Origin: Patescibacteria group bacterium
Lineage (GTDB): Bacteria > Patescibacteriota > Microgenomatia > UBA12405
Assembly (NCBI GenBank): GCA_023380755.1
Contig: JAMCSD010000006.1
Coordinates: 188,735-252,734, forward strand
DNA: 64,000 nt
Direction: 5' to 3'
Shown here piece by piece: positions 21,776 through 29,676 of the stretch. Numbering within the stretch: the stretch's first letter is position 1; every line of letters starts with the position of its first letter. The notes beneath the pieces were generated by a model. The model was given only the letters and a program-made list of their open reading frames with translations, ran no database searches and had not been told where the DNA came from. The translations under genes and the position numbers were made by a program.

Positions 21776-24445
21776 TTATTTCCCTCGAGGGGTCAGCGCC
21801 CGCAAAGCAATAATATCCGGCTTTGGCAGGTTCACTATGTAATTATTATGTTTACCATAATACAACAACTGGCTGGCAGTGAACAAAAAGATGCCGAATA
21901 CCACTAAAATAATCGAGTAGCTGACCCACGATACGGTTTGTTGATGCATCAGTCGTTTAGAAGCCATCCACAAATAACTCGATGAGCTCATGAGGAGTAG
22001 TAAATAGGGCAATAAATTTACTGGTTTTTGTTGTGAATCCTGGACTCCCATAATCACTCCACTCGTTGGTTGGACTGCTGCCGTCACTACTTGTCCTGAC
22101 TTTATTATAAAGGTTGTGTTGGCTTCATTGGAGCTGACTCCTGTCCCATCTACCGCCACACCCTGAACTTGAGTCACTGTTTGATAGCTTCCTCCCACTA
22201 CTTTTGCATTGCCAAATACCTTGGTCAAGGGTAATCCAAACCGGATGGTCCCTTCCCGGAAGGGATTAATTTTCCCGATTGGCAGTGTAGTTGAAAAAAT
22301 CTCTTTGCCTTGGGGATTAACCAACCTATGGACGAGTTGGCCATTCAATAAAGGCGCATCACTGGAATTTTTCACCTTAATTTCAAATGTCACCACGTCG
22401 TTGGGGTACACAAACTCCCCGACATTATTTTTTGCTCCAATCACAATTACTGGCTGGCGGTGATCAGTGCCTTCGCTACTGTTCGCTAGGGTATCATTAT
22501 ACCCATTATCACCGGTATCACCCAGATTTTGTTCCACCACAATCTCGCTGGTGGCACTATTGTTAGTTAAATCGGCATCCGGGTCAGTTGATGAAATTTG
22601 GGCATAAGCGGTGAGTAATTTTTGGGCTGTATTGCTGGCTGCCCAAACCGATTTTACCGGTCCTTCAGCGCTGGTTTCGTTGAAAATATTCGGATCAACC
22701 TCCAAGTTTACCTGGAAATTTCCCGAACTTCCTTGGGACAAGTCCTTATAATCCCAGCTAACCTTATCGCCGGTAATTTGATGACCTACTCCGCTCGTAT
22801 CTGAAAGATACCTCGTTCCCGGCGGCAAGCTTAAATAAATCCGTGAGTTGCGGGCCTCATCATACCCTTGGTTGGTCCAATGTAAGGTTAGGGTTAGGGT
22901 GCCTCCTGGCGCTTCCTCGGTTTTTCTTGGGTCCACTGCAATTGCTAAATCCGGATAGGCAAAAATGATTTTCCCATGCCAATCACCGACCACATTAATA
23001 ATTCCCCGAAACCAATTGCTATACCACCACTGGCTGTTAATATAATTAAATAGGTTTGCCAAAGCATAGGCGTTACCCGTGGTAATATTCGCCATCCCCG
23101 CGGCCGCCGCACTGTTGCCCCCGCTGGCGGCTAAAGCCTTAATCCAATTTGTTAAATTTACGGCTCCATAACCACCGATGGCCGGGATAGATCCCACCCG
23201 ACTTGGATCGGTCGTTAAGATATCTAACAAAGTTTTCCCATTAACCGTAATTTGGTAAGCATTATTTCCATTCATAATTTGCCCCAACACATTTTCCGTC
23301 GAACTGGCCGCTGTTCCATTACCGGTTGCAATGGTGCTGCTGTTACCGTTTGCCTGGTTTTCCCCAGTACTAGCCTGAGTGGCAATATTGTTGTTCACCG
23401 TTACTGGTCCGCCTCCGGCTGCTCCCGGGCTGCCTCCCACTACTCCGGAAAATAATTCTGGACGGGGCAAAATAATGTTGCCGTTAAAATTTCTGACCGT
23501 AATTACTCCGGTCAACATATTAGTTGCTACCCAATAAGTGTTAATAAAATTAAGCACGTTCGCTACTGCTGCTGCGTCACCAGTTAGGACAATGCTGTTA
23601 CCATTAATGCTTACCGTATTATTTCCGCCGCTACCGGCATTTACGGTGACTTCATTATTTACATTGGTTGGCTGGCTTGACCCCACCGAAGTTGCCGGAC
23701 TAATAGTCATTCCCGTGGTACTGGCCGACTGCTGGATTGCTTTCCACATGGCATTCAGGTCTAAATTCCCGCTAGTGCCGCTGTCTAGGGTGATGAAATA
23801 AATTTGCACATGGGAACCGACACTTGAAGAATTTATCAGGTTCACTAAATTAGCATAAGCTGCCGCATCTCCGGCGGTTACCACCACCCCGCTGCTGCCT
23901 GTTCCTTCGTTGCTGCCGCTGTTGGCCGTACTGCTTTGGGTTGTCCCTACTGTACTGCTGGTATCGGTATTTACTTGGTTGCTGGCATTTGTTTCACTAC
24001 TGGCTGTTCCGCTGGCGGTTTCGGTTTGGTTGCCATTATTATTGTTATTCCCGGTTGTTGAAGTCGCCGTATTGCTATTGCCCACATTGACTGCTGTTGT
24101 TGGTGTCGGTGTCGCCGACGGTGTGGCCTCGTTGCTTAAGATCATCGGTGTTATTGGGTCACCAGTGGGTGTTGGGGTAGCGGACAGATCAGGAGTTGGT
24201 GAATCAGTACTGCTCGGTGTTAAGTTACTCGGAGTCGTAGTTGGTGTTTCTGTGGTTGTCGGCCCCGTTGTTTCGGTTGGTAGGGGAGTTGGCTCGGTGG
24301 GAGCTGGTGACTCCGTTGGCGTTATCATCACAGTCGGCTCTGGTGGGGGACTAGTGGGGGTTTCAGGAATAGTCGTTGGTGTGGCGCTCGGATCAACTGT
24401 TTGTCCCCACAAAATTGTACTATTACCAAACAGTAATAGTGCCAA
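21776..24445 (-). CDS. Large surface protein (PT-rich N-terminus, repeated TGDA..AN..N.IN modules, CARDB/DUF11-like beta domains, C-terminal TM helices)
   Basis: 889-aa ORF. The true start probably lies upstream, where the in-frame KLKRIKLSIVVSFLALLLFG signal sequence reaches about 24487 without an ATG. Modules: VVVTAGDAAAYANLVNLIN, IVLTGDAAAVANVLNFIN, ANITTGNAYALANLFNYIN. Confidence 0.7.
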   Translation of the reverse strand: MALLLFGNSTILWGQTVDPSATPTTIPETPTSPPPEPTVMITPTESPAPTEPTPLPTETTGPTTTETPTTTPSNLTPSSTDSPTPDLSATPTPTGDPITPMILSNEATPSATPTPTTAVNVGNSNTATSTTGNNNNNGNQTETASGTASSETNASNQVNTDTSSTVGTTQSSTANSGSNEGTGSSGVVVTAGDAAAYANLVNLINSSSVGSHVQIYFITLDSGTSGNLDLNAMWKAIQQSASTTGMTISPATSVGSSQPTNVNNEVTVNAGSGGNNTVSINGNSIVLTGDAAAVANVLNFINTYWVATNMLTGVITVRNFNGNIILPRPELFSGVVGGSPGAAGGGPVTVNNNIATQASTGENQANGNSSTIATGNGTAASSTENVLGQIMNGNNAYQITVNGKTLLDILTTDPSRVGSIPAIGGYGAVNLTNWIKALAASGGNSAAAAGMANITTGNAYALANLFNYINSQWWYSNWFRGIINVVGDWHGKIIFAYPDLAIAVDPRKTEEAPGGTLTLTLHWTNQGYDEARNSRIYLSLPPGTRYLSDTSGVGHQITGDKVSWDYKDLSQGSSGNFQVNLEVDPNIFNETSAEGPVKSVWAASNTAQKLLTAYAQISSTDPDADLTNNSATSEIVVEQNLGDTGDNGYNDTLANSSEGTDHRQPVIVIGAKNNVGEFVYPNDVVTFEIKVKNSSDAPLLNGQLVHRLVNPQGKEIFSTTLPIGKINPFREGTIRFGLPLTKVFGNAKVVGGSYQTVTQVQGVAVDGTGVSSNEANTTFIIKSGQVVTAAVQPTSGVIMGVQDSQQKPVNLLPYLLLLMSSSSYLWMASKRLMHQQTVSWVSYSIILVVFGIFLFTASQLLYYGKHNNYIVNLPKPDIIALRALTPRGK
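24115..24400 (-). repeat. Low-complexity Pro/Thr/Ser-rich region (coding)
   Basis: Encodes PSATPTTIPETPTSPPPEPT...TPTPTGDP. It also creates long spurious ORFs in other frames. Confidence 0.85.
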
Positions 24446-24507
24446 AAACGAAACAACAATCGATAATTTAATTCGTTTTAACTTCAGAGTATTTAAGAAT
24501 TTTTAAT

Positions 24508-24547
24508 CTGACCAGCAATCCCGGCGTAATGTCGGGATTGCTGTCAG
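24508..24547 (-). terminator. Strong stem-loop downstream of the 171-aa gene (terminator or mRNA-stabilising hairpin)
   Basis: CTGAC(C)AGCAATCCCG, loop gcgtaatgt, CGGGATTGCTGTCAG: a 15-bp stem with one bulged C. There is only an A/T-rich tail, not a clean U-tract. Confidence 0.5.
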
Positions 24548-24562
24548 GAGTTGGTCACTTCA

Positions 24563-25078
24563 TTAATCCAATAAAGACGAAATACTAACATTGACCAGAG
24601 TGCTAGCATTCGAAGTTGACGTCGCATTTCCAGTATTAGTAGTCTGAGATCCACCGCCAATATTAGCGGAACTAAACATAGATTTATATACAGTCGACGT
24701 CATCCCTTGGTAATTATTGCCTGTGTCTGATAGGGCTGTGGACGAGGTGTCTATATGCACCTTAGGCAGATAATATCCACCTACTCCTAATGAAAGCCCA
24801 TCCAGTACTCCCCCTAGCGTATTAGCAGTTAAGTTAACTGTCGTTGAGCTATTAGAAGTTGCACTAGCCGCCCCAGTAGTTATCGATTGTGAGCCTCCGG
24901 TAACATTACTGCTGTTATTCATGCTTTTCTTAAGCATTGAAAATATTTCTTGGGTATTATTTCCCGTATTAGACATGGCGCTTGAGCTGGTATCAAAATG
25001 AATACCGCTATAAGCAAAAGCCGGTACCACCCCTAAGAGTAATGCCGCAATCCCTCCAAGAATTGATAATTTAGTCAT
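24563..25078 (-). CDS. Small secreted protein made of two tandem repeats of about 65 aa, rich in Ser/Thr/Asn/Gly
   Basis: Signal peptide MTKLSILGGIAALLLGVVPAFA. Repeat 1 reads HFDTSSSAMSNTGNN...GGSQSITTGAASATSNSSTTVNL and repeat 2 reads HIDTSSTALSDTGNN...GGSQTTNTGNATSTSNASTLVNV. Strong GGGGGTG Shine-Dalgarno sequence. Confidence 0.7.
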   Translation of the reverse strand: MTKLSILGGIAALLLGVVPAFAYSGIHFDTSSSAMSNTGNNTQEIFSMLKKSMNNSSNVTGGSQSITTGAASATSNSSTTVNLTANTLGGVLDGLSLGVGGYYLPKVHIDTSSTALSDTGNNYQGMTSTVYKSMFSSANIGGGSQTTNTGNATSTSNASTLVNVSISSLLD

Positions 25079-26299: not shown

Positions 26300-26328
26300 T
26301 TGACTTAAACCGCCGTTTCCACTATTCT
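26300..26328 (+). promoter_or_regulatory. Candidate sigma70-type promoter of the rarA operon
   Basis: TTGACT (26300-26305), 17-nt spacer, TATTCT (26323-26328). Confidence 0.35.
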
Positions 26329-26357: not shown

Positions 26358-27545
26358 ATGCCTCTTCATACCACTCAACCACTCGCTGACCAACTTCGAC
26401 CCAAGAATCTTGATGAGTTCATCGGTCAACAACATTTAGTCGGTCCGGGCAAACCATTACGCCTTGCCGTCGAATCCAAAACGCTTTTTTCGATGATCTT
26501 TTGGGGCCCGCCCGGTGTTGGTAAAACTACCTTAGCCCGGATCTTAGCCAAAGAAACCGATGCAGAAATCCACGAACTTTCGGCTGTTTCCGCTGGCAAA
26601 GACGACATTAAAAAGATAGTTGGCACTAATCCCTCTCCCGGCCTGGTTAAAAAAATTTTATTTTTGGACGAAATCCATCGATTCAATAAAGCCCAGCAGG
26701 ATTTCCTGCTCCCTTATGTCGAATCGGGGATCTTAACCCTCATTGGCGCTACCACCGAAAACCCCAGTTTCGAAGTCATCGCCCCACTCTTGTCCCGTTG
26801 TCGCGTTTTTGTTTTAAATGAATTATCCCCCGACGAAATCCGCGAAGTCATCAGCCGCTGTCTCAAAACCCTCGAAACTAAAATGTCTAAAGAAGCTACT
26901 GACTGGTTGGTCAATATGGCCAACGGTGACGCCCGCCAGGCTATTACTATGATCGATAATGCTTATACCCTTTACGAAAAACTGACCATCGATACCCTCA
27001 AGTCCACCCTTCAAAATTCCTTCCTCCGTTTCGACAAAAAAGGCGAAGAGCACTACAACACTATCTCCGCTTTTATCAAATCAATGCGTGCTTCCAACGT
27101 CGATGCCGCTGTCTATTATTTAGCCCGGATGGTCGAGGCTGGTGAAGATCCCAAATTCATTGCCCGACGCATGGTCATTTTTGCCTCCGAAGACATTGGC
27201 ATTGCCAATTCTTCGGCACTTTTAGTTGCCAACGCCGTCTTTGAAGCGGTGACCAAAATCGGTTACCCCGAGTGCGCTATCAACCTGGTTCACGGTGTGG
27301 TTTATTTGGCCAAATCTCCCAAAAACCGTTCCGCTTACGATGCCCTTCAAGCCGCCCGCAAAGACGTTAAAGAACTGGGTAACCTCCCCATTCCTCTTAA
27401 TATCCGCAATGCTGTCACTGACTTAATGAAAGATATCGGTTACCACGAAGGCTATGAAATGTATCCCGAAGTGGACGACTATCTGCCCGAAAAACTCAAG
27501 GGCAAAAAGTATTTTAAGGAGATTAAAAATACAGTGAAGAAATGA
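26358..27545 (+). CDS. rarA: Replication-associated recombination protein A (AAA+ ATPase)
   Basis: LADQLRPKNLDEFIGQQHL, Walker A GPPGVGKTT, LFLDEIHRFNK, and a C-terminal MgsA-type region ARRMVIFASEDIG. Confidence 0.95.
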   Translation: MPLHTTQPLADQLRPKNLDEFIGQQHLVGPGKPLRLAVESKTLFSMIFWGPPGVGKTTLARILAKETDAEIHELSAVSAGKDDIKKIVGTNPSPGLVKKILFLDEIHRFNKAQQDFLLPYVESGILTLIGATTENPSFEVIAPLLSRCRVFVLNELSPDEIREVISRCLKTLETKMSKEATDWLVNMANGDARQAITMIDNAYTLYEKLTIDTLKSTLQNSFLRFDKKGEEHYNTISAFIKSMRASNVDAAVYYLARMVEAGEDPKFIARRMVIFASEDIGIANSSALLVANAVFEAVTKIGYPECAINLVHGVVYLAKSPKNRSAYDALQAARKDVKELGNLPIPLNIRNAVTDLMKDIGYHEGYEMYPEVDDYLPEKLKGKKYFKEIKNTVKK

Positions 27546-27862
27546 AACCCGGCGAATTTAGTAAAAATCTTTGGCGCCTCGCCCTCACCATCCCGCCGGG
27601 TCGGGTCACCACCTACGCCACCCTCTGTGTCGCCGCCGGTGGCCATCCCAGGATGGCTCAAATGGTCACCTACATTTTGGGCAAATCTCCTGATGTCGAC
27701 AAAATTCCTTGGCACCGTATAGTCTATTCCGATGGTAAAGTTTGGTTGTCACCAAAATACGACAAAATGAGACGTGAACTTTATAAAAAAGAGGGGATCG
27801 AGCTTGATGATCAAAATCGCATCAAAAACTTTGAACACATTATTTATTCATTTGACTCATGA
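27542..27862 (+). CDS. Alkyltransferase-like (ATL) protein: MGMT DNA-binding fold without the acceptor cysteine
   Basis: IPPGRVTTYATL helix-turn-helix region. PWHRIV (27707-27718) stands where active MGMT has PCHRV. About 106 aa. The ATGA overlaps the rarA stop. Confidence 0.8.
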   Translation: MKPGEFSKNLWRLALTIPPGRVTTYATLCVAAGGHPRMAQMVTYILGKSPDVDKIPWHRIVYSDGKVWLSPKYDKMRRELYKKEGIELDDQNRIKNFEHIIYSFDS

Positions 27863-28083
27863 AACACCAGCCCAAAACCCTCCATGGGGCTAACATGGAT
27901 ATTGATTTAACCAGCGCTCAAAACGTCACCTGGAAACAGGATCTTTGTCCCTGGAACGAGGCCGAAAACAGCGGCACGACCCACAAATGTGCCATCAAAA
28001 ACACCTCCATCTGCGACTACTTTTGCGGAGTCCAAGCCCCCGACAACGTTTTATGTTCATACCCTCACCAAAATGAAGACTAA
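27859..28083 (+). CDS. Small Cys-rich hypothetical protein (74 aa)
   Basis: The start overlaps the ATL stop (ATGA), and the end overlaps the next start by 11 nt. Five Cys residues (CPW, KC, SIC, YFC, LC). No known motif. Confidence 0.45.
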   Translation: MKHQPKTLHGANMDIDLTSAQNVTWKQDLCPWNEAENSGTTHKCAIKNTSICDYFCGVQAPDNVLCSYPHQNED

Positions 28084-28459
28084 AACGCTGGATGAATTAG
28101 CTCAAGACATTCTGCAATTTAACCACGCTCATGGCTGGCATCAGCACCCCCAGGACTTAGCTAAGTCCATCGTCATCGAAGCCGCCGAGCTACTGGAGCT
28201 GTTCCAATGGGATGTCACTCTGGGCCGTCTCGACAAAAATCTTCAGGGCAAAGATCTTTTGGAAATCAAAAAAGAGGCCGCCGATATCTTTTGGTACTTG
28301 CTTGAATTTTGCCACGACTCCGGCTTTGACCTTAAAGAGGCAGTCGAAATTAAGTATGCCCACAATACCAAGAAATTTCCCGTCGAAATGTTTAATGGGA
28401 AGGACAATGTTGAATTTCGGCAACACCAACACCGGTTATATCGTCAAAAGAGAAAATAA
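28073..28459 (+). CDS. MazG-like nucleoside triphosphate pyrophosphohydrolase
   Basis: I preferred the internal ATG at 28073 to the track start at 27989. Motifs EAAELLELFQW and KEAADIFWYLLEF (the EExxE/D four-helix MazG pattern), then KYAHNTKKFP. Confidence 0.75.
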   Translation: MKTKTLDELAQDILQFNHAHGWHQHPQDLAKSIVIEAAELLELFQWDVTLGRLDKNLQGKDLLEIKKEAADIFWYLLEFCHDSGFDLKEAVEIKYAHNTKKFPVEMFNGKDNVEFRQHQHRLYRQKRK

Positions 28460-28460
28460 A

Positions 28461-29201
28461 ATGACCAAAAATATTTATCATCAAGAACTCGTCATGGCAC
28501 TCAAAAAGGCCGATCCACAAGGCCCGGTTGGTGGGCTTTTTATGGCCCATTATTGCGGTTCCGATAAGCCGGCCTACAATCTTAATACCGCCGACCACAC
28601 CAAAATTATCAAAGAATTTGTCGATAGGCACGACTTTACTCCTCAGGCCGCTGTCGATCTCATCGGCTCGCTTTACATCAATGGTCAAAGTATGAACGAA
28701 ATTTTTTTTGCCGGTAATTTAGTTGGCCGTTTATTTAATAGGGATTTCGATCCGCAGCATCTCGATTCCTGGTTGAATTATGTCCATGGTTGGGCCGAAG
28801 CCGATGTTTTGTGCCAATCAAATTTCACCGACCAAGCACTTTTGGGGAATTGGCCTGCCTGGGAAAAAATCTTGACTAAATTTGTCACCGACTCCAATGT
28901 TCACAAGCGCCGTGCTAGCCTGGTCCTGTTAACCAAACCTCTACGTTTATCCCCCGATCCCCGTTTGCTCAAAATGGCCATCCGTCACGTCGACCTTTTA
29001 AAAGGGGAACGAGATATTCTTATCACCAAAGCCATCTCTTGGGCACTTCGTTCCTTAGTTTTCCAGCACCCGGAAGTTTTAGCGGAATACTTAACCAAAA
29101 ACCAAAAATCATTACCCAGTATTGCCTATCGCGAGGCTTATTCCAAGCTCACCACGGGCCGGAAATATAACCATCAGAAAAAACAAAAAGCTATTGTATA
29201 A
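28461..29201 (+). CDS. DNA alkylation repair protein (AlkD/AlkC-like HEAT-repeat glycosylase family)
   Basis: ATG at 28461, 2 nt after the upstream stop. Motifs W..YVHGWAEADVLC, VHKRRASLVLL and ITKAISWALRSL resemble the DNA_alkylation family. Confidence 0.7.
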   Translation: MTKNIYHQELVMALKKADPQGPVGGLFMAHYCGSDKPAYNLNTADHTKIIKEFVDRHDFTPQAAVDLIGSLYINGQSMNEIFFAGNLVGRLFNRDFDPQHLDSWLNYVHGWAEADVLCQSNFTDQALLGNWPAWEKILTKFVTDSNVHKRRASLVLLTKPLRLSPDPRLLKMAIRHVDLLKGERDILITKAISWALRSLVFQHPEVLAEYLTKNQKSLPSIAYREAYSKLTTGRKYNHQKKQKAIV

Positions 29202-29208
29202 ATAAAGG

Positions 29209-29652
29209 GTGAAGGATCTGATCTACGACGCCGTCAAAGATTCCACTAGTTTGCCTGACCTTGCCAAGAAACTTATCGCTTACCTTAAAAAATTTTCCCA
29301 CAATGGAGCGACCCCTATTGGATTTGTGGCCGGGATCATCAACTCGGACGGCCCCGATCTGGTAGAGAAAAATAAACAGCGACTCGCCTCTTTTACCCAA
29401 CAAATTTGCACCCAAGTCTCTTTTCCGGTCTTTTCTTGTCTTGACGTTTACGAAGGTGAGCTTCGTCAGATTATTACTGCCTCTGGGGCCACCCATAATG
29501 ATTACCTTCTATTCTGGCGCCAGGTTTTGGAATCTGGTTTTATTACCGACCTCTTTTTAACCCCCGGCTGGGAACGCTCCCGTGGAGTCCAAGATGAATA
29601 TGAAACCGCCAAAAGCATGGTCATTAATATTCACAAATTAACTTGCTCCTGA
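29209..29652 (+). CDS. DUF4406 / nucleoside 2-deoxyribosyltransferase-like protein
   Basis: GTG start. GFVAGIINSDGP and LTPGWERSRGVQDEYETAK match the G..s.Ga..E...A pattern of this fold. Confidence 0.55.
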   Translation: MKDLIYDAVKDSTSLPDLAKKLIAYLKKFSHNGATPIGFVAGIINSDGPDLVEKNKQRLASFTQQICTQVSFPVFSCLDVYEGELRQIITASGATHNDYLLFWRQVLESGFITDLFLTPGWERSRGVQDEYETAKSMVINIHKLTCS

Positions 29653-29667
29653 AATTTTTTTAACTAC

Positions 29668-29676
29668 TGTTACAAT
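29668..29676 (+). promoter_or_regulatory. Extended -10 element TGtTACAAT 8 nt upstream of the ATG at 29685; candidate leaderless promoter
   Basis: TG at 29668-29669, TACAAT at 29671-29676. Confidence 0.5.

Follow-up and report, generated by a model that had tools for sequence, protein, structure and literature searches.

A run of six genes on the + strand was analysed within a 64,000-nucleotide stretch of a Patescibacteria group bacterium genome (the window; positions 188,735 to 252,734 of contig JAMCSD010000006.1). The run encodes a RarA protein, an alkyltransferase-like protein (ATL), a Cys/His-rich protein of 74 amino acids (aa) termed orf3, a MazG-like nucleoside triphosphate (NTP) pyrophosphohydrolase, an AlkD-type glycosylase, and a protein termed orf6 (Table 1). 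The source genome is referred to as G000, in which the window corresponds to contig C6:188735-252734, and labels beginning with L and P denote the loci and proteins of the analysis. The G000 assembly comprises 806 kb in 9 contigs and is 77% complete, and the genomes of its relatives measure 0.5-1.1 Mb. A first-pass annotation, made from the letters of the window, had described the six open reading frames (ORFs) as one translationally coupled operon. All six + strand ORFs were found where it had placed them, and the junction sizes it had given from rarA through orf6 (-4 (ATGA), -4 (ATGA), -11, +1, and +7 nt) were reproduced. The GTG start of orf6 agreed with the N-termini of its homologues.

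Table 1. Features of the rarA-orf6 run and its borders (positions in the window).
Feature	Position	Strand	Basis or remark
Promoter-like match TTGACT-17-TATTCT (9/12)	26300..26328	+	Weak sigma-70-like consensus match in the 87-nt gap upstream of rarA
rarA/mgsA, 395 aa	26358..27545	+	MgsA_C, AAA_assoc_2, AAA
ATL, 106 aa	27542..27862	+	PF01035, PWHR
orf3, 74 aa, Cys/His-rich	27859..28083	+	Homologue alignment
MazG-like NTP pyrophosphohydrolase, 128 aa	28073..28459 (ATG 28073)	+	PF12643
Predicted AlkD-type HEAT-like-repeat glycosylase, 246 aa	28461..29201 (ATG 28461)	+	PF08713
orf6, 147 aa, GTG start	29209..29652	+	DUF4406 family matches, predicted fold
Promoter-like match with TG extension	29649..29676	+	Weak consensus match in the 26-nt gap before the oxidoreductase alpha gene

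The annotation had assigned four of the genes to rarA, ATL, MazG-like, and AlkD-like families, and all four proteins scored above the Pfam cut-offs; the profile search that it had suggested for the ATL and AlkD-like assignments bore out both. RarA comprises an AAA+ module and an MgsA C-terminal domain (MgsA_C, 1.7e-50, 171.6 bits; AAA_assoc_2, 1.4e-21, 77 bits; AAA, 1.1e-15, 58.6 bits) and is 71-82% identical to its family relatives. The ATL consists of the AGT C-terminal domain alone, without the N-terminal domain (PF01035, 1.8e-16, 60.2 bits against a cut-off of 27, residues 5-86 of 106), and the closest solved structures were those of Vibrio ATL (2kif, 1.4e-10) and S. pombe Atl1 (3gva, 1.4e-4). 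The PWHR motif was located at 27707-27718, as annotated (codons CCT TGG CAC CGT). Its Trp57 stands where the acceptor Cys would be, and orthologues carry either PFHR or PWHR.

According to the excerpt of a 2023 review (PMC10779285), Trp replaces the acceptor Cys of the PCHR motif in most ATLs, and the arginine finger is among the features conserved in these proteins. The landmarks of human AGT are Y114, the arginine finger R128, and the acceptor C145. In an alignment of 11 sequences, Tyr25, the counterpart of the base-flipping Tyr (human AGT Y114), was invariant. The arginine finger was absent from the window protein, which has Gln40 (window 27659-27661) at the corresponding position, 17 residues before Trp57; the protein was thus regarded as an atypical ATL. 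The same position was occupied by Gln in 5/9 and by Arg in 4/9 of the other Trp/Phe-type sequences. An Arg three residues before Gln40 was seen only in G000 among the ATL sequences aligned, and a literature search for alkyltransferase-like proteins together with Arg39 returned no match. By analogy with characterized ATLs, we infer that the protein is catalytically dead and would bind O6-alkylguanine-type lesions.

The AlkD-like protein matched PF08713 over residues 27-230 (8.3e-22, 78.4 bits against a cut-off of 21), while the match with B. cereus AlkD (1.1e-4) covered the C-terminal half only. The catalytic residues of AlkD are given as Trp109, Asp113, and Trp187 in the excerpt of PMC8626424; W111, D115, and W194 of the window protein align with them and were invariant in 18 sequences. 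At the level of profile and residues, the protein was confirmed as a predicted AlkD-type DNA glycosylase. It has been kept vertically across the family at 36-61% identity, and tblastn found no connection between this subfamily and the PF08713 genes typical of the phylum. In a genome from another family of the order (G037, L125 4005-6842), the AlkD orthologue immediately precedes uvrB, both genes being on one strand.

The gene neighbourhood was compared among relatives by way of AlkD. An AlkD-like match was present in 36 of the 61 genomes of the order, G000 included, and 17 relatives carried a clear orthologue (E <1e-40), around which approximately 6 kb on either side was annotated. A Trp/Phe-type ATL was located near the AlkD orthologue in 6 of these 17 relatives (G001, G008, G013, G031, G026, and G023) and a PCHR-type alkyltransferase in two more (G030 and G002), giving proximity of ATL/MGMT and AlkD in 8/17 altogether. 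rarA was near AlkD in 10/17, and orf3 was found in none of the 17 AlkD stretches. The genes lying between rarA, ATL, and AlkD varied by genus (HAD, peptidase S51, EamA, dCMP deaminase, shikimate kinase, IS200-like transposase, and GIY-YIG genes), and in one genus rarA overlapped AlkD directly. The arrangement rarA...ATL...AlkD is an old synteny block of the family with variable inserts, in which rarA is the synteny anchor and is not counted as a functional member. IS200-like (Y1 transposase) genes were observed after rarA at L119 8472-9032 (G031) and L120 2687-3286 (G012), which fits an insertion-prone region. Downstream of rarA in G023 (L127 10797-12300), two back-to-back PF01035 genes, one of them encoding PWHR, are followed by a radical SAM gene.

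The six-gene unit that had been proposed was not conserved, its arrangement being specific to one genome. As for the recurrence of its parts, the ATL-AlkD linkage does recur, while ATL, MazG, DUF4406, and AlkD were found together again only in a single congener, where their order differs, rarA is not adjacent, and orf3 is missing. No paper titled on ATL/AlkD gene linkage was found in the literature search, nor one on the gene neighbourhood of alkyltransferase-like genes.

In a phylum sample of 401 genomes (G000 and G214 included), 150 genomes had a PF01035-type match and 162 a PF08713 match; PCHR proteins of approximately 100 aa were common, being present in most of the 150. The two genes lay within 10 kb of each other in 7 of the 46 genomes carrying both families among the matches listed, and these seven belonged to three genus-level lineages. 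The chance expectation was approximately one genome by our own arithmetic for genomes of ~0.9 Mb, uncorrected for kinship. In G344, a genome of a different family, genes for GIY-YIG, GNAT, ATL (PFHRI), and AlkD are arranged on one strand with an ATL-AlkD gap of 27 nt; this AlkD (PF08713, 3.4e-61) is of the typical subfamily, other than that of the window.

Two of the remaining genes are candidates for enzymes of the nucleotide pool. The MazG-like protein matched PF12643 (2e-8, 34.8 bits against a cut-off of 27) and the pyrophosphatase family phrog_3301 (5e-12), and among solved structures an archaeal pyrophosphatase (4qgp, 6.9e-12) and dCTP pyrophosphatase 1 (6sqw, 1.1e-6). Its acidic pairs EAAE and EAAD (ExxE and ExxD) align with those of dCTP pyrophosphatase 1 and 4qgp; in MazG-type proteins, such pairs are metal-binding. 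DCTPP1 converts dCTP and 5-aza-dCTP into monophosphates, as described in the excerpt of PMC11183266.

For orf6, the annotation had suggested a DUF4406/nucleoside deoxyribosyltransferase-like protein. The sequence itself stayed below the DUF4406 cut-off (PF14359, 16.5 bits against 22, E 0.012, last 27 residues only), and the assignment was upheld instead by the family and by the fold. The orf6 family comprised 244 cluster representatives at E <=0.001; 58 of its 73 aligned members matched DUF4406 at E <=0.01 (best 7.4e-7), and the orf6-family gene of G001 reached 26.1 bits. The AF2 model (pLDDT 95.7) aligned in VIA-align with 1t1j (Z 10.4, 113 residues aligned, root-mean-square deviation 3.2) and 7m5h (Z 9.2), with the deoxyribosyltransferases 7o62 (Z 8.1), 6evs (Z 8.0), and 1f8x (Z 7.1), and with MilB (Z 7.0). 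Foldseek with the same model returned nothing at E <=0.001, and the orf6 sequence had no meaningful match among the sequences of solved structures. A nucleoside 2-deoxyribosyltransferase fold in a divergent DUF4406 subfamily is thus supported by the predicted model and the family matches.

The conserved motif of orf6 is S124-x-G126-xxx-E130-xxx-A134, in which E130 was invariant in 13 close homologues and at least 90% conserved in 73. We take the S-x-G-xxx-E spacing, as a lead only, to be that of the phosphate-binding Ser and catalytic Glu of DNPH1. The only PHROG matches of the MazG-like protein and orf6 were phage pyrophosphatase and deoxyribosyltransferase families, and the viral contigs searched contained only distant relatives of orf6 (25-29% identity). 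Among the titles and abstract openings retrieved, no paper on DUF4406 function was found.

Among the 17 family relatives, the AlkD locus contained relatives of both MazG and orf6 only in one, the congener G001. The genes of this locus run ATL-MazG-orf6-AlkD, separated by 3, 26, and -4 nt, and orf3 is absent. rarA of G001 is two genes off this cluster, and one intervening gene is on the opposite strand. The identity between G000 and G001 was 82% for rarA, 70% for ATL, 61% for AlkD, 46% for MazG, and 35% for orf6. The two orf6 proteins grouped with different metagenomic proteins, and a tree uniting them was rejected by the approximately unbiased (AU) test (p 0.0007, delta lnL 72). As the orf6 genes of G000 and G001 are not orthologues, the ATL-AlkD locus gained or kept two different DUF4406-like genes.

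An association of orf6-type genes with house-cleaning enzymes was also seen at metagenomic loci. Three of the six members of the MazG subclade of the window (G001, L157, and L164) are encoded directly upstream of an orf6-family gene, and the window MazG is one gene away from orf6. Orf6-family loci were searched with a 13-row alignment as the query, and the 49 metagenomic loci considered were those with a called gene (82/110 neighbour clusters scanned; some contigs were near-duplicates). In 14 of the 49, a NUDIX, MazG, Maf, Ham1, dCTP deaminase/dUTPase, HIT, or deoxyribosyltransferase gene was located within two genes. In other families of the phylum, NUDIX genes were found in comparable positions: one shares 4 nt with an AlkD-family gene in G097 (L142 3011-3565 and 3562-4359), and in G412 (L141 3385-4877) a PCHR alkyltransferase gene has a NUDIX gene on either side. 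These pairings repeat the combination of repair and pool cleaning with another hydrolase family.

orf3, previously noted as a 74-aa Cys-rich ORF, proved to be a real and strongly conserved Cys/His protein. Its 114 homologues share 52-70% identity, with C30, H42, C44, C52, and C66 invariant and an N-terminal GANMDIDL motif. Relatives were confirmed in 279 stretches among 185,579 species genomes and are spread over Patescibacteria, rumen Clostridia, Chloroflexota, Bacilli, and DPANN archaea, and none was found in viral contigs. No family was retrieved in Pfam, NCBIfam, or PHROGs, the sequences of solved structures gave no meaningful match, and in the ESM Atlas all matches were to hypothetical proteins in unnamed clusters. 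The pLDDT of the AF2 model was only 68, and no chain among 48,161 reached Z >=2 in VIA-align. At the orf3 loci (L034-L113), the largest neighbour cluster covered 5 of 64 loci and no neighbour family was constant; GNAT was the commonest immediate neighbour (7 of 101 scanned). ATL and MazG were also present at one of 80 loci (L060, a 2.7-kb contig), where orf3 lies 9 nt before MazG. Because it has no constant partner, we read orf3 as an independently inserted, widely distributed small protein of a putative metal-binding type.

The repair repertoire of G000 was surveyed, as the annotation had raised the possibility that Ada, Ogt, and AlkA are missing. This did not hold for Ogt: another PF01035 protein, which stands alone, measures 105 aa, and retains an intact PCHR, is encoded approximately 70 kb upstream (C6:145832-146149; L001 1486-1803), and because of it G000 was credited with an Ogt-type transferase. 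It did hold, within the 77%-complete assembly, for the Ada zinc domain and for HhH-GPD proteins (AlkA, Nth, MutY, and Ogg types), and Tag, AAG, and AlkB were not found there either; the HhH-GPD search was positive in all 14 control genomes. Of the excision proteins, UvrB and UvrC were found, and the UvrA DNA-binding domain was not detected in the same incomplete assembly. The AlkD-like protein was the sole alkylpurine glycosylase detected.

Several relatives of the ATL are fused to other domains. The ATL of G013 (L118 5008-5586) is joined to a GIY-YIG domain in the order ATL-GIY-YIG. Eight longer ATL relatives were retrieved, among which P0267 has the order ATL-GIY-YIG, P0268 has the order GIY-YIG-ATL, five carry TfoX_N, and one has PF01035 alone. 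The fusion in both domain orders argues for a functional tie of the ATL clade to a small GIY-YIG nuclease. G000 itself has four GIY-YIG genes. Archaeal AGT-EndoV and ATL-EndoV fusions are read as a hard-wired hand-off to incision in the excerpt of PMC10779285. No paper describing an ATL-GIY-YIG fusion was found among the matching records, and one of the matching reviews (PMC7835731) deals, in its excerpt, with nucleotide excision repair (NER). Small GIY-YIG genes were also observed adjoining ATL or AlkD in G344, G023, and G012. In the TfoX_N proteins (P0269, P0270, and P0272-P0274), this competence-regulator-type domain is N-terminal, and the identity to the ATL is 50-56%; one of them carries the source name 'alkylated DNA nucleotide flippase Atl1/TfoX/Sxy family'.

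The same-strand run goes on past position 29652 with the gene for the alpha subunit of a 2-oxoacid:ferredoxin oxidoreductase, which starts after 26 nt and is followed by the genes for the beta subunit (+1), methionine aminopeptidase (+36), and FolD (+4). With a crude ORF caller, 315 of the 644 same-strand junctions of the genome were <=11 nt, and five runs of at least five consecutive tight junctions were found in 0.8 Mb; another version of this caller gave 297 of 592 junctions at <=10 nt. The tight spacing of the six genes is ordinary for G000 and extends into unrelated downstream genes, and it carries little information because about half of the same-strand junctions are <=11 nt. From the gene spacing and the weak promoter-like matches, the six genes are probably co-transcribed. 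The transcription unit possibly begins at the match upstream of rarA, and its downstream boundary possibly lies at the match after orf6; promoter-like sites numbered 23 in the scanned region against 13.7 expected, and terminator-like sites were at chance level (11 against 10.8 in shuffles). No compositional anomaly was detected in the GC and GC3 values per gene of the cluster. Only short, chance-like repeat pairs occurred around it, with no flanking repeats, and an Rfam search of the whole window returned no family. Elsewhere in the window, at 21776-25078 on the - strand, an 889-aa ORF, in which a long N-terminal region is rich in Pro/Thr/Ser and the C-terminal tail is hydrophobic, is followed by a 171-aa Ser/Thr/Asn-rich ORF without a Pfam family; both probably encode surface proteins.

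With moderate confidence, we read the locus as a maintenance run assembled piecemeal, in which two loosely linked sub-modules and a passenger occupy a variable interval between the rarA and oxidoreductase genes of a compact, ultra-small genome of the Patescibacteria type. The ATL and AlkD form an old, repeatedly retained pair in the family, and the support for a functional link between them is real but modest. The ATL would bind an O6-alkylguanine-type lesion and pass it to an excision or incision enzyme, and AlkD would remove cationic or bulky alkylpurines without base flipping. The MazG/DUF4406-like pair plausibly degrades a non-canonical dNTP in two steps: the DCTPP1-like MazG protein would convert the dNTP into a dNMP, which the DNPH1-like orf6 would then split, and the substrate need not be alkylated. 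It is the neighbourhood alone that points to alkylated nucleotides as substrates of these two proteins. No support was obtained for a predicted ATL-AlkD complex, which was counted neither for nor against the reading.

Several observations weigh against this piecemeal assembly of linked pairs. Gln40 at the arginine-finger position makes canonical base flipping by the ATL uncertain. The relatives are not independent, since common descent by itself can preserve gene order within a family; proximity of ATL/MGMT and AlkD is seen in only three or four independent lineages, and outside this family the gene near AlkD mostly encodes an alkyltransferase of the PCHR type and lies 1-8 kb off, instead of being an adjacent ATL. 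The orf6 clade used in the AU test was named after the first tree had been seen, and for MazG the AU test did not reject a clade of G000 and G001 (p 0.27). MazG was present in only 2 of 53 metagenomic orf6-family loci, and none of the 29 MazG-like loci of the phylum sample had orf3, orf6, or AlkD-type genes within 1.5 kb.

The six genes could instead form the single entity that the first-pass annotation envisaged, a co-regulated and translationally coupled module that clears alkylated bases from DNA and the nucleotide pool and is coupled to RarA fork rescue. The five consecutive junctions that overlap or measure <=7 nt speak for such a module, as does the confirmation or support obtained for all the families named. 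In the congener G001, ATL, MazG, and AlkD are likewise grouped with a DUF4406-like gene that is not an orthologue of orf6, a hint that the combination has been selected for, and the NUDIX genes overlapping AlkD in G097 and flanking the PCHR alkyltransferase in G412 point in the same direction. We nevertheless regard it as distinctly unlikely: the four-gene set occurs in 1/17 family relatives and orf3 in 0/17, rarA of G001 is separated by two genes, one of them on the other strand, and junctions of this tightness make up approximately half of those on the same strand and run on into the oxidoreductase, map, and folD genes. The contrary proposal is that no functional link exists, and that the gene order reflects inherited synteny together with small genes inserted neutrally where a compact genome tolerates them, the repair/nucleotide theme being a product of the large number of small housekeeping genes. 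The different unrelated inserts per genus in the rarA-oxidoreductase interval, including an IS200-like transposase, the heterogeneous neighbours of orf3 and orf6 relatives elsewhere, the ordinary packing, and the lack of compositional anomalies and flanking repeats all agree with it. It explains less readily why an ATL and an AlkD of another subfamily lie 27 nt apart in an unrelated family, why two non-orthologous DUF4406-like genes occupy the same ATL-AlkD locus in two congeners, or why 4/6 members of the MazG subclade are beside or near orf6-family genes. Together with the excess of genomes having alkyltransferase and AlkD genes within 10 kb (approximately seven against one expected among the matches listed, uncorrected for kinship), these points make neutral insertion an unlikely explanation.

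A protection island, directed against a genotoxic natural product or foreign or modified DNA and using the MazG-like and deoxyribosyltransferase-fold proteins to deplete or detoxify modified nucleotides, is in our judgement very unlikely. Phages commonly encode proteins of the MazG-like and deoxyribosyltransferase-fold types, and phage families were the only PHROG matches of the two window proteins. The interval is variable and contains transposase genes in relatives, and AlkD relatives such as YtkR2 confer self-resistance to yatakemycin-type alkylators (PMC8626424, excerpt). Nevertheless, no biosynthetic, restriction, or known defence genes were found beside the cluster in the window (PADLOC was not searched), AlkD is conserved vertically at 36-61% identity, and the viral contigs contained no orf3 relative and only distant orf6 relatives (25-29%).

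More speculatively, the ATL might be the sensor of a short, UvrA-independent pathway that hands lesions to a GIY-YIG nuclease and/or AlkD, with the MazG-like and DNPH1-like proteins destroying the matching damaged dNTPs. This pathway is pointed to by the two opposite-order GIY-YIG fusions and the ATL-AlkD adjacency in two unrelated families, and we give it a low probability. If it were true, one locus would guard both DNA and its precursors.

As an operon, the run is ordinary, all of its enzymatic parts being from known families. Its interest, under the piecemeal reading preferred here, concerns the hand-off partners of ATLs outside UvrABC, for which the ATL-AlkD recurrence, the GIY-YIG fusions in two orders, and the repeated recruitment of hydrolase genes give testable candidates from organisms with very reduced repair equipment. 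The analysis also gives a first description of two unannotated families, the DNPH1-like DUF4406 branch, often found beside house-cleaning NTPases, and the 74-aa Cys/His protein.

The window proteins were compared with known systems. Like S. pombe Atl1, E. coli Atl/YbaZ, and Vibrio vpAtl, the ATL has ~106 aa and only one domain, the AGT C-terminal domain, in which Trp occupies the acceptor position and the conserved Tyr is kept, and UvrB and UvrC, which belong to the NER hand-off of those proteins, are likewise encoded in G000. It differs from them in having Gln40, in being encoded beside an AlkD-type glycosylase, and in having close relatives fused to GIY-YIG, and a search of the 77%-complete G000 assembly detected no UvrA DNA-binding domain. 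The window glycosylase shares PF08713 membership and the Trp-Asp-Trp triad with B. cereus AlkD and YtkR2, although its similarity to the former is weak (E 1e-4) and it represents a distinct subfamily. The MazG-like/orf6 pair resembles mammalian DCTPP1 and DNPH1, comprising a DCTPP1-like all-alpha pyrophosphatase and a deoxyribosyltransferase-fold protein with S-x-G-xxx-E. At the sequence level, orf6 has no match to solved proteins, and the likeness consists of the fold (Z 8-10) and the DUF4406 matches. To our knowledge, the DCTPP1 and DNPH1 genes are not linked in mammals.

In E. coli, ada and alkB share an operon, and in B. subtilis the ada operon lies beside alkA. These adaptive-response clusters for alkylation damage likewise combine an AGT-family O6-alkylguanine binder with a remover of N-alkylated bases. 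In the window, however, a predicted non-catalytic ATL represents the AGT family, and a HEAT-like-repeat protein of the AlkD type takes the place of AlkA as the glycosylase; the assembly yielded no regulator with an Ada zinc domain, and the repair genes are interspersed with two genes of nucleotide hydrolase type and an orphan. In archaeal EndoV fusions, the nuclease differs from the GIY-YIG domain found in both orders in relatives of the window ATL, which is itself unfused, but both AGT-EndoV and ATL-EndoV proteins likewise join an AGT-family lesion binder to an endonuclease.

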